DNA of 20,981 bases from a virus (taxonomy: Duplodnaviria > Heunggongvirae > Uroviricota > Caudoviricetes): IMG/VR virus record IMGVR_UViG_2529293049_000007; one strand, given 5' to 3'. The position numbers and the translations under genes are program-made. Of the stretch, positions 788-2,718 are shown one piece after another. The notes below the pieces were generated by a model. The model was not told the origin of the DNA. It did no database searches and saw only the letters and a list, made by a program, of their open reading frames with translations. Position 1 is the first letter of the stretch. Each line of letters opens with the position of its first letter.

Positions 788-1483
788 TCAGCCAGCAGGC
801 CATCCGACAGCATAACTGCGGATCGCCTTCAGCTCTGTCAGCGCCTCAACCTCTGCTTTCATCTGCAACTGCCGTGTATTAATCTCCACCCCCTTCGCAA
901 ACATCGCCTGCTCTGTCGCATCCGACAGGGCTATGATGTCTGCCGCCGTCACCGGCACCACATTATTATCCCCGTCGGTCCAGGCAAAACCTTCCGGAAG
1001 ACGGTTATTCTCTGCCATCAGGCGTGTCATGCTTATCCTGGACAACGTCTTCTTGCCGTAATCCCAGTTCCTTCCGTTGAATTCCATCATGTATTCCATA
1101 TTCTCCTGCACATCACGCCAGATATTAATCTCTTCCCTTTTCGCCGCTTTTGCCGCTTCCAGTACTGCTTCCGTGGCGACAAAGGCACTCACACTTCCGT
1201 ACGTTCCTGCTGTCAGCCCAGACCACAATGCTTTTCCGTGTTCTGTATTATCCGTTTCCGTTGCAGTATACGGCAGCCATACCTGTTCCCCTTTTTCATT
1301 CACCGCGTCTTCAAACTGCACCTCACAGTTTATCCCGCCATATTCGTTGCTGGCTGCATTTCGTACTGCAAGAATCTCTTTTCCCTTATCCACCATGACC
1401 TCCTCTATGATATGCGCTGAAATAATCCTGCCTGTCTGATACCCGGAGATGATGTCCATAGCATCGGACCACATGCACGCCAC
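788..1483 (-). CDS. hypothetical protein downstream of stf, function unknown (possible tail-fiber chaperone or accessory protein); start uncertain
   Basis: 231-codon ORF in the -1 frame relative to stf, overlapping its last 79 nt. Frame opens after a TAA at 1511-1513; candidate starts GTG 1483, ATG 1474, ATG 1459, none with a clear Shine-Dalgarno. Does not resemble lambda Tfa beyond a vague C-terminal W...WP pattern. Confidence 0.6.
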
Positions 1484-2718
1484 GTGCCCGGTAAACGGGT
1501 CTCCCCCACATTACCGGAAGCAACCAGGGGAGTACCATTCGAAAGGCAGCATGCAGACAGTGATGACCCGGCAACAGTTGAGCCAGGGGCACGGTCCCCC
1601 GAATAATGCGTCTGGTAATACGCCGCAAGAACAAAAGAACCGACACCAAACAGCCCGCTGTCAGGGCTTCCGGATGGTCCCCGTGGTCCTGCCGGGCCTG
1701 CAGCTCCCGTATCCCCTTTCGGTCCCCGTGGTCCTGCCGGGCCTGCAGCTCCCGCATCCCCTTTAGGTCCCTGAGGACCTGCATTTCCCGTCAGACCGGT
1801 CTCTCCCCTGTCGCCTTTCGGCCCCTGCGGGCCTGCCGGACCAGCATCACCTGCCGGCCCCCGTTCACCGGTTGCCCCTGCCGGGCCGGTGTCGCCACGC
1901 TCTCCTTTATCTCCCTTCGGCCCCTGAGGACCCGCGGGCCCCGGTTCCCCCTTTGGCCCGGGAGGCCCCACCACGGTGGGGATTCGGTTTACGGCCTCTT
2001 CCGCCGCTATCCTGCTTTGTTCCGCTGACTGTGCGCTTTCTGCTGACTCCCGGGCTTTTTCTGTTGCGGTCGTTGCATCCCTGGCTGCATTACCGGCTGC
2101 ACTTTCTGCCGTCTTTTTTGACAACTCAGCATCTGTTGCACTTTGTAATGACTCACTGGCTTTTTGAGCGGCCGCAGAGGCCGAGGACGATGACGCCTCC
2201 TCTGACTGCTTTGCTGAGGCTGCACTTTCTGCCGCCTGCCGGGCTGACTCCGATGCATCCCCTGCTGAAGTGTCAGCATTTGCAGCGCTCTCTTCTGCCT
2301 GACTGGCTGATATGCCGGCATTCCTCGCTGACGTCTCCGCCTCTCCGGCATTCTTCTTCGCCTCCTCTGCGTTACGCACCACCTCTTCCACCATCAGTTC
2401 AAAACGGCGCAGTGCCTCAGGACGGGCATCATCCTCCGTCATGGCACCGAGAAAATCATTCAGCGTACCGGGTCGGGAATCTTCATACACGGTGATGGTC
2501 CCGGCATGTGAAGGCGGAAAACCTTCAACCAGCAGGGTGACGCTGTACTGACCATGCTCAACATCCATGCTGTAACGTCCGGCTTCATCCGGATTTTCAG
2601 AGGCCACCGTGTTCACCACCACCGTGCTGCTGGTTCGTCTGGCCTTCAGCACAATGGTGCAGTTCTGTACTGGTTTTCCTGTGCCATCTTTAAGCACGCC
2701 AGAAATTTTTACTGTCAT
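1405..2718 (-). CDS. stf: side tail fiber protein with collagen-like Gly-X-Y repeats
   Basis: 437-aa ORF directly downstream of lom; N-terminal [12 protein letters not shown].. domain, Ala/Ser/Glu-rich helical segment, about 100 residues of GPxGxxGxx collagen-like triplets, short C-terminal domain; GGTGG upstream of ATG 2718. Confidence 0.85.
1676..1765. repeat. tandem duplication, 2 copies of a 45-bp unit (2 mismatches) inside the stf collagen-like region
   Basis: Units 1676-1720 and 1721-1765 read directly from the sequence; in the stf frame they encode two consecutive near-identical 15-residue collagen-like units ([15 protein letters not shown] / [15 protein letters not shown]). Confidence 0.85.

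Follow-up and report, generated by a model that had tools for sequence, protein, structure and literature searches.

A DUF4376 gene directly behind the side tail fibre gene of a lambdoid prophage probably encodes a tail-fibre chaperone

The window analysed here is a stretch of 20,981 nucleotides (nt) from the IMG/VR virus record IMGVR_UViG_2529293049_000007. It contains a side tail fibre gene, stf, and, behind it on the minus strand, an open reading frame (ORF) of the DUF4376 family. A 941-base query covering positions 760-1700 is 100% identical to genomes of the Escherichia coli O104:H4 outbreak strain, among them 2011C-3493, C227-11, and FDAARGOS_403, and 99.3% identical to E. coli strain 55989. 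The matched region is located in a lambdoid prophage, at its right end and beside yecD/aspS. The stf gene (1405..2718, minus strand), identified from the ORF list, Pfam, and its RefSeq name, encodes a protein of 437 amino acids (aa) and ends with a TAG stop codon at 1407-1405. Stf is composed of a prophage tail-fibre N-terminal domain (PF08400, E 2.3e-68), an Ala/Ser/Glu-rich stretch, collagen-like Gly-X-Y repeats (PF01391, E 1.8e-16), and a C-terminal tip of ~88 aa. Its RefSeq product name is 'prophage tail fiber N-terminal domain-containing protein'. The minus-strand ORF behind stf had been described in an original prediction as a 231-codon frame overlapping the 3' end of stf. Such a frame is indeed present at 788..1483 when read from a GTG codon, and it stays open back to an in-frame TAA at 1513-1511, hence the limit of 1510 given in that prediction.

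The junction between the two genes reads, on the minus strand, ATA TCA TAG (1407-1405) AGGAGG (1404-1399) TC ATG (1396-1394) GTG (1393-1391) GAT AAG. The Shine-Dalgarno sequence AGGAGG (1399..1404) abuts the stop codon of stf, and its GGAGG is invariant in 8 related junctions. Two start codons (1391..1396), recognized from the sequence and from relatives, follow the Shine-Dalgarno sequence: ATG after 2 nt and GTG after 5 nt. The DUF4376 gene delimited by this Shine-Dalgarno sequence, by its homologues, and by the profile phrog_1141 spans 788..1393 on the minus strand, has 201 codons from GTG 1393 or 202 from ATG 1396, and ends with TGA at 790-788. The gap from the stf stop to GTG 1393 is 11 nt, and a scan of this gap for promoters and terminators found no such site. 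With a start at 1393 or 1396, the DUF4376 gene does not overlap stf.

The original prediction correctly saw that GTG 1483, ATG 1474, and ATG 1459 each lack a Shine-Dalgarno sequence. However, its statement that no candidate start has one overlooked the in-frame ATG 1396 and GTG 1393, which are preceded by a perfect AGGAGG. The three upstream codons belong to a stop-free 5' extension of the DUF4376 frame within stf (1397..1510, minus strand), which we judge to be non-coding in that frame. The 79-nt overlap with stf (1405-1483) exists mechanically. A stop-free run of 29 codons upstream of the true start has a chance expectation of about one quarter, (61/64)^29; runs of this kind are frequent by chance, and the overlap itself is therefore not a signal. 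We conclude that the 79-nt overlap is an artefact of reading the longest ORF.

Homologous proteins begin where the shorter gene begins. The 194-position profile phrog_1141 matches residues 33-230 of the long ORF from end to end (E 1.7e-79). Nearly all of 120 homologues are 187-209 aa long and cover 83-87% of the long ORF, and the largest near-identical cluster, with 445 members, is 202 aa long and begins with MVDKGK. In an alignment of 20 diverse homologues, every N-terminus falls at residue ~30 (~30/31) of the long ORF. In six relatives, the Prokaryotic Genome Annotation Pipeline (PGAP) placed non-overlapping DUF4376 genes of 201/202 aa.

The junctions of 8 E. coli prophages, 90-100% identical, were aligned. 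Five of them have one base less and read TCA TGA GGAGG TC ATG GTG. In these, the stop of stf is kept as TGA and the Shine-Dalgarno sequence and start are unchanged, and the two genes stand in relative frame +1 instead of +2. The extension is then a different reading of stf that contains no ATG, GTG, or TTG. Because the 1-nt indel shifts the relative frame, neither an overlap nor a fusion is conserved. The original prediction had envisaged that a one-base indel in relatives might fuse the frames; the indel exists, but it turns TAG into TGA and the two genes stay separate. The position of ATG 1396 is occupied by GTG in one of the prophages (L003) and by AGG in another (L007), and GTG 1393 is the sole start invariant in all 8. 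The proposed start inside stf is thus not upheld: members of the family have their N-terminus at residue ~30/31 of the long ORF, and relatives neither conserve the extension nor keep its frame.

The protein matches the Pfam family DUF4376 (PF14301) with 60.9 bits over residues 110-217 of the long ORF (E 1.9e-16), compared to a Pfam gathering cut-off of 25 bits. NCBIfam has no model for it. In the 201-aa protein, the DUF4376 module corresponds to residues 80-187 (833..1156, minus strand; E 1.3e-16), and in the predicted structure it consists of a helical body and a β-hairpin. When 1.84 billion cluster representatives were searched with a profile, 944 relatives were identified at E <= 1e-3. Nearly all of these are small stand-alone proteins, the listed ones of ~70-260 aa, with the module at the C-terminus and variable N-termini. 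The longer proteins P0207, P0196, and P0125 contain PF14301 only in Pfam, with no Tfa or fibre domain at the N-terminus, and P0237, P0003, and P0001 appear to be chimeric assemblies.

The AlphaFold2 (AF2) model of the 202-aa protein has a pLDDT (predicted local distance difference test) score of 93.6. It begins with three β-strands (residues 8-16, 22-32, and 38-45), followed by helices 52-63 and 76-99 and a β-hairpin 102-113. The C-terminal part is formed by helix 115-129, two short strands, and a 35-residue helix 151-185. The structure matches of the model in BFVD are DUF4376 proteins. The three-stranded N-terminal β region (residues 8-45; 1262..1375, minus strand) may be the part that binds the fibre tip, by analogy with the chaperone complexes predicted for other members of the family.

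The function of the gene can be approached through characterized DUF4376 proteins. Alteromonas phage V22 gp27 is a DUF4376 protein of 195 aa encoded right after the receptor-binding fibre gp26 (PMC7289586). It is needed for the binding of gp26 to cells, yet in size-exclusion chromatography it is fully resolved from functional gp26 (PMC7289586). The related chaperone gp9 of phage A5 has been proposed to be a transient cap, and a 3:3 complex with the fibre has been predicted, in which three chaperone strands extend the β-sheet of the fibre head (PMC10579305). In Campylobacter CJIE1, a DUF4376 gene located after the H-fibre must be co-expressed for the fibre to function (PMC7882524). The V22 gp27 sequence, taken from MN877442, matches PF14301 over residues 87-187 (E 3.2e-21). 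An hhalign comparison of the window protein's family alignment (A2) with V22 gp27 gave a probability of 93.6% (E 2.1e-7, 130 columns, covering residues 56-197).

The order of fibre gene and DUF4376 gene is kept across unrelated types of phage (lambdoid, P2/Mu-like, Vequintavirinae, and prophages with an SU10 adaptor), as well as in V22 and 6 E. coli relatives. Prophage P-EibA has an identical J-lom-stf-ORF order, and a DUF4376 gene follows the fibre gene in phiP27, in the lytic Vequintavirinae phage Av-05, in Salmonella prophages with an SU10-type adaptor, and in a Cronobacter lambdoid prophage. A P2-like E. coli prophage has a classical pair of fibre and Tfa and, next to it, a second fibre that the DUF4376 gene serves. 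In these cases, the DUF4376 gene begins 0-12 nt beyond the stop of the fibre gene or shares 1-4 nt with it.

The enterobacterial fibres encoded upstream of DUF4376 genes resemble each other at their C-termini. The Stf tip (residues 350-437; 1408..1671, minus strand) has the sequence [19 protein letters not shown]…[10 protein letters not shown]…LPGTWRACG…GLFQRIS. Its motifs PGS…, G[TS][WFY]xA…, and the C-terminal [GT]LFxR[IV]x recur in the fibres of Salmonella, Cronobacter, the P2-like E. coli prophage, P-EibA, phiP27, and Av-05. The window Stf ends in GLFQRIS and the others in GLFMRVA, TLFQRVR, GLFRRVA, TLFQRIV, SLFVRIA, and GLFMRIA. The GLFQRIS terminus matches those of complete partner fibres, and the window stf therefore ends where complete fibres end. 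Length and body vary among the enterobacterial partner fibres, and the C-terminal tip of ~90 residues is common to them. Pfam and NCBIfam scans gave no match for the Stf tip. A search with the C-terminal 92 residues of Stf yielded nothing but five partial, near-identical proteins of E. coli; none was a fusion of a tip with DUF4376. Across 9 non-independent pairs, tip and chaperone co-vary weakly (Spearman 0.38 for the chaperone's N-terminal part, 0.13 for its C-terminal part), and this co-variation is not relied upon. Judging from these recurrent motifs, the tip of ~88 residues may be the client domain of the DUF4376 protein.

We propose that the DUF4376 ORF is an independent gene of 201/202 codons and that it probably encodes an intermolecular tail-fibre chaperone of the V22 gp27 type. 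Its boundaries, Shine-Dalgarno sequence and start, membership in DUF4376, homology to gp27, and synteny were shown here. The original prediction had offered a separately translated chaperone or accessory protein as one option, and this option is borne out by the PF14301 score, the homology to gp27, and the position just after the fibre gene. Several observations weigh against the chaperone assignment or the short gene. The fibres of phage A5 fold without their DUF4376 partner, and the dependence is thus not universal (PMC10579305). The window protein and V22 gp27 share ~20% identity, in the C-terminal two-thirds only, which places their link at the level of the domain. The experiments on the family concern Alteromonas and Campylobacter members, not enterobacterial ones. 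PHROGs and several GenBank records name relatives 'tail fiber protein', which fits a structural role. Finally, the RefSeq protein WP_244400054.1, found in the O104:H4 lineage only, has 223 aa, starts at ATG 1459, and overlaps stf.

In the mechanism that we envisage, stf and the DUF4376 gene would be co-transcribed. Ribosomes ending the translation of stf would meet AGGAGG at once and could re-initiate at the GTG or ATG, which would tie the supply of the chaperone to that of the fibre. The chaperone would engage the C-terminal tip of nascent Stf, ~88 residues long, through its variable N-terminal β region. The helical DUF4376 module may then oligomerize and nucleate trimerization from the fibre's C-terminal end. 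After trimerization, the chaperone would leave or stay as a transient cap.

It is also conceivable, though unlikely, that the DUF4376 protein remains in the fibre as a stable part of its distal end, in the manner of a tip adhesin or of a cap such as gp38 of phages T2 and S16 or Mu Tfa, which stay bound, and that it aids receptor recognition instead of helping only transiently with folding. The names 'tail fiber protein' and 'side tail fiber' given to relatives by PHROGs and GenBank would suit such a role, but these labels are not experimental. The transient cap and the 3:3 fibre-chaperone complex predicted for Alteromonas phages (PMC10579305) point in the same direction, as does the N-terminal part, which in some pairs is more variable than the C-terminal part, as expected for a region facing the host or the client. 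However, V22 gp27 is not part of the final complex, as it separates fully from functional gp26, and helices make up most of the AF2 model of the window protein, which shows none of the glycine-rich or knob-like features of an adhesin.

We regard as highly improbable that translation begins within the 3' end of stf and yields a long form of the protein, with 223 aa from ATG 1459 or 231 aa from GTG 1483. There are three start codons in the frame, which stays open to 1510, PGAP picked ATG 1459 in genomes of the O104:H4 lineage, and clusters of 220-256 aa proteins exist in databases. These starts, however, have no Shine-Dalgarno sequence, and the additional residues have no counterpart in homologues or in phrog_1141. 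Moreover, the indel in five relatives puts the codons of the extension out of frame, with no start there. The clusters of 220-256 aa are tiny (1-6 members), and two of them, P0001 and P0003, have unrelated N-terminal sequences and look like assembly chimeras. The N-terminus of WP_244400054.1 is probably over-extended; in our reading it begins 22 codons too early, counted from the start behind the Shine-Dalgarno sequence that PGAP chose in other lineages.

In laboratory lambda (lambda PaPa), stf is split, which provides a precedent for a fibre gene divided by a frameshift, and the resulting orf-401 and orf-314 are seen in the lambda record. That stf and the DUF4376 ORF are likewise halves of one fibre gene, or are joined by programmed frameshifting, has the least to commend it: the frames overlap on the longest reading and a 1-nt indel polymorphism is present at the junction, but both indel states retain an stf stop (TAG or TGA) and separate genes, Stf has the complete terminus of partner fibres, the DUF4376 ORF has its own Shine-Dalgarno sequence, and DUF4376 proteins stand alone among the 944 representatives, the few longer ones being chimeras or having non-fibre N-termini. 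The split gene, an option raised in the original prediction, was rejected because of this indel polymorphism and because the family's members stand alone. Programmed -1 frameshifting, which that prediction had already considered unsupported, was rejected as well, as there is no X XXY YYZ heptamer in the overlap (1405-1483; the nearest is at 1719) and the RNA structure at the junction is not significant (z = 0.36).

Variation was also observed within both genes. The window stf is exactly 75 residues shorter than the 512-aa Stf of FDAARGOS_403 and 2011C-3493 and is otherwise identical. The missing residues correspond to five 15-aa Gly-X-Y units; the collagen repeats span 1672-1971, with a 45-nt tandem unit at 1676-1782. 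The difference is either a real variation in repeat number or an assembly collapse of the repeat. In 2011C-3493 (L001, NC_018658.1, 1758-3296), RefSeq lists stf as an incomplete pseudogene (1758-2816), yet its 512-codon ORF is intact, and in FDAARGOS_403 (L002, 758-2296) the identical 512-codon translation is annotated as a normal coding sequence. The pseudogene flag seems to reflect inconsistent annotation rather than a real defect of the gene. ORFs of 114-207 aa in alternative frames cover the collagen and Ala/Ser-rich part of stf at 1386-1784 (minus strand), 1606-2028 (plus), 1872-2495 (plus), and 2007-2351 (minus). We take these to be stop-poor frames of a repetitive G+C-rich sequence and presume that they are not genes.

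At least one cryptic prophage, that of strain ST866 (L005, NZ_CP077646.1, 1804-2412), shows decay of the DUF4376 partner gene: a premature TAG interrupts it after 137 codons, and it is annotated as two fragments. Tandem DUF4376 genes, of 192-195 aa and 201 aa, follow one fibre gene in Salmonella (L009-L011, 3258-4606), the second being 155 nt away. In two of these loci (L009 and L011), an IS66-family element has interrupted the fibre gene.

The genes J (3537-6932), lom (2870-3469), stf, and the DUF4376 ORF are all located on the minus strand. A G+C-rich hairpin at 758-777, with a T-run on the plus strand and an A-run on the minus strand, lies 11 nt past the DUF4376 stop, between convergent genes. 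It is likely a transcription terminator, as predicted by a terminator scan from a consensus match only. Strong terminator-like hairpins on the minus strand were also detected at 2737-2766, after lom and just upstream of the stf start, and at 3499-3518, after J. If these two hairpins are functional, stf and the DUF4376 gene would need read-through or a promoter of their own. Convergent with the DUF4376 gene is an 86-aa ORF (385-645, plus strand) that belongs to the YkgJ / CxxCxxCC zinc-cluster family (PF03692). It has 109 aa in relatives, and its O104:H4 copy is present as frameshifted fragments in RefSeq; it is probably what is left of a cargo gene that decayed at the prophage end. A gene for a DinI-like protein (PF06183, E 1e-19; 1-249, plus strand) lies just outside the tail-fibre module and is typical cargo of lambdoid prophages.

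The DUF4376 gene is an ordinary, already annotated gene of a family whose role is known, and no new biology is implied. The practical consequence is a correction of the annotation in the O104:H4 lineage, where both WP_244400054.1 and the longest-ORF reading begin inside stf. In E. coli and Salmonella, many lambdoid prophages pair collagen-repeat side fibres with a partner of the DUF4376 type instead of Tfa, and for expressing or re-targeting such fibres the partner gene probably needs to be co-expressed. More tentatively, we speculate that the Stf tip (…G[TS][WFY]xA…[GT]LFxR[IV]x) and the DUF4376 protein form a mobile two-gene cassette of a tip and a trans-acting chaperone or cap. This cassette might be exchanged among lambdoid, P2/Mu-like, Vequintavirinae, and SU10-like enterobacterial phages, parallel to and independent of Tfa, with the chaperone remaining on the fibre and controlling receptor binding as a cap that can be removed.

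The DUF4376 gene resembles the genes of lambda Tfa and Mu U in its location directly after the fibre gene, tight coupling to it, similar size of the product (175-194 aa for Tfa and U), and the same presumed job. The proteins differ in that lambda Tfa and Mu U, members of Caudo_TAP (PF02413), have no homology to the window protein. Lambda Tfa and Mu U/U' match PF02413 only (E 1e-37 to 1e-43), and the window protein has no PF02413 match at E <= 0.1, in agreement with the earlier impression that it is not Tfa-like. A relationship was rejected also at the profile level, as hhalign gave the family alignment a probability of 1.8% against Tfa and 0.6% against Mu U. The C-terminus of Mu Tfa has been said to be a DUF4376 domain (PMC7882524). 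We did not reproduce this statement, since Mu U and U' (L019) give Caudo_TAP only and show no profile similarity.

DUF4376 chaperones have been said to resemble the intramolecular chaperone domains of K1F endosialidase and T5 pb1 (Peptidase_S74), with a trimeric helical core and β-hairpin 'tentacles' (PMC10579305). Such a domain would work at the C-terminus of a trimeric fibre, as we propose for the DUF4376 protein. The window protein did not show the marks of that type, a sequence or fold match to the solved domains and covalent attachment with an autocleavage site. The resemblance was not recovered in fold searches with the window protein and is a lead only.

The closest characterized counterparts are V22 gp27 and A5 gp9. 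PF14301 is at the same C-terminal position in V22 gp27 and in the window protein, which are similar in size (195 and 201 aa), and their genes are 11-12 nt downstream of the respective fibre gene on the same strand. The AF2 model of the window protein predicts, as secondary-structure elements, the three N-terminal strands, helical body, and β-hairpin described for the Alteromonas chaperones. The settings differ: V22 and A5 are a marine myovirus or schitovirus, whereas the window belongs to a lambdoid siphovirus prophage of E. coli. The client is also different, here a collagen-repeat Stf with another tip, whereas V22 gp26 lacks the …LFxRIx terminus. Nearer to the window protein are the full-length homologues P-EibA ORF-191A, phiP27 L57, Av-05 gp0077, and RefSeq proteins named 'DUF4376 domain-containing protein', such as WP_250142942.1 and WP_032253722.1, which share 28-96% identity with it and are likewise encoded after a fibre gene. 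We found no functionally important difference between the genes of these enterobacterial prophage relatives and that of the window.

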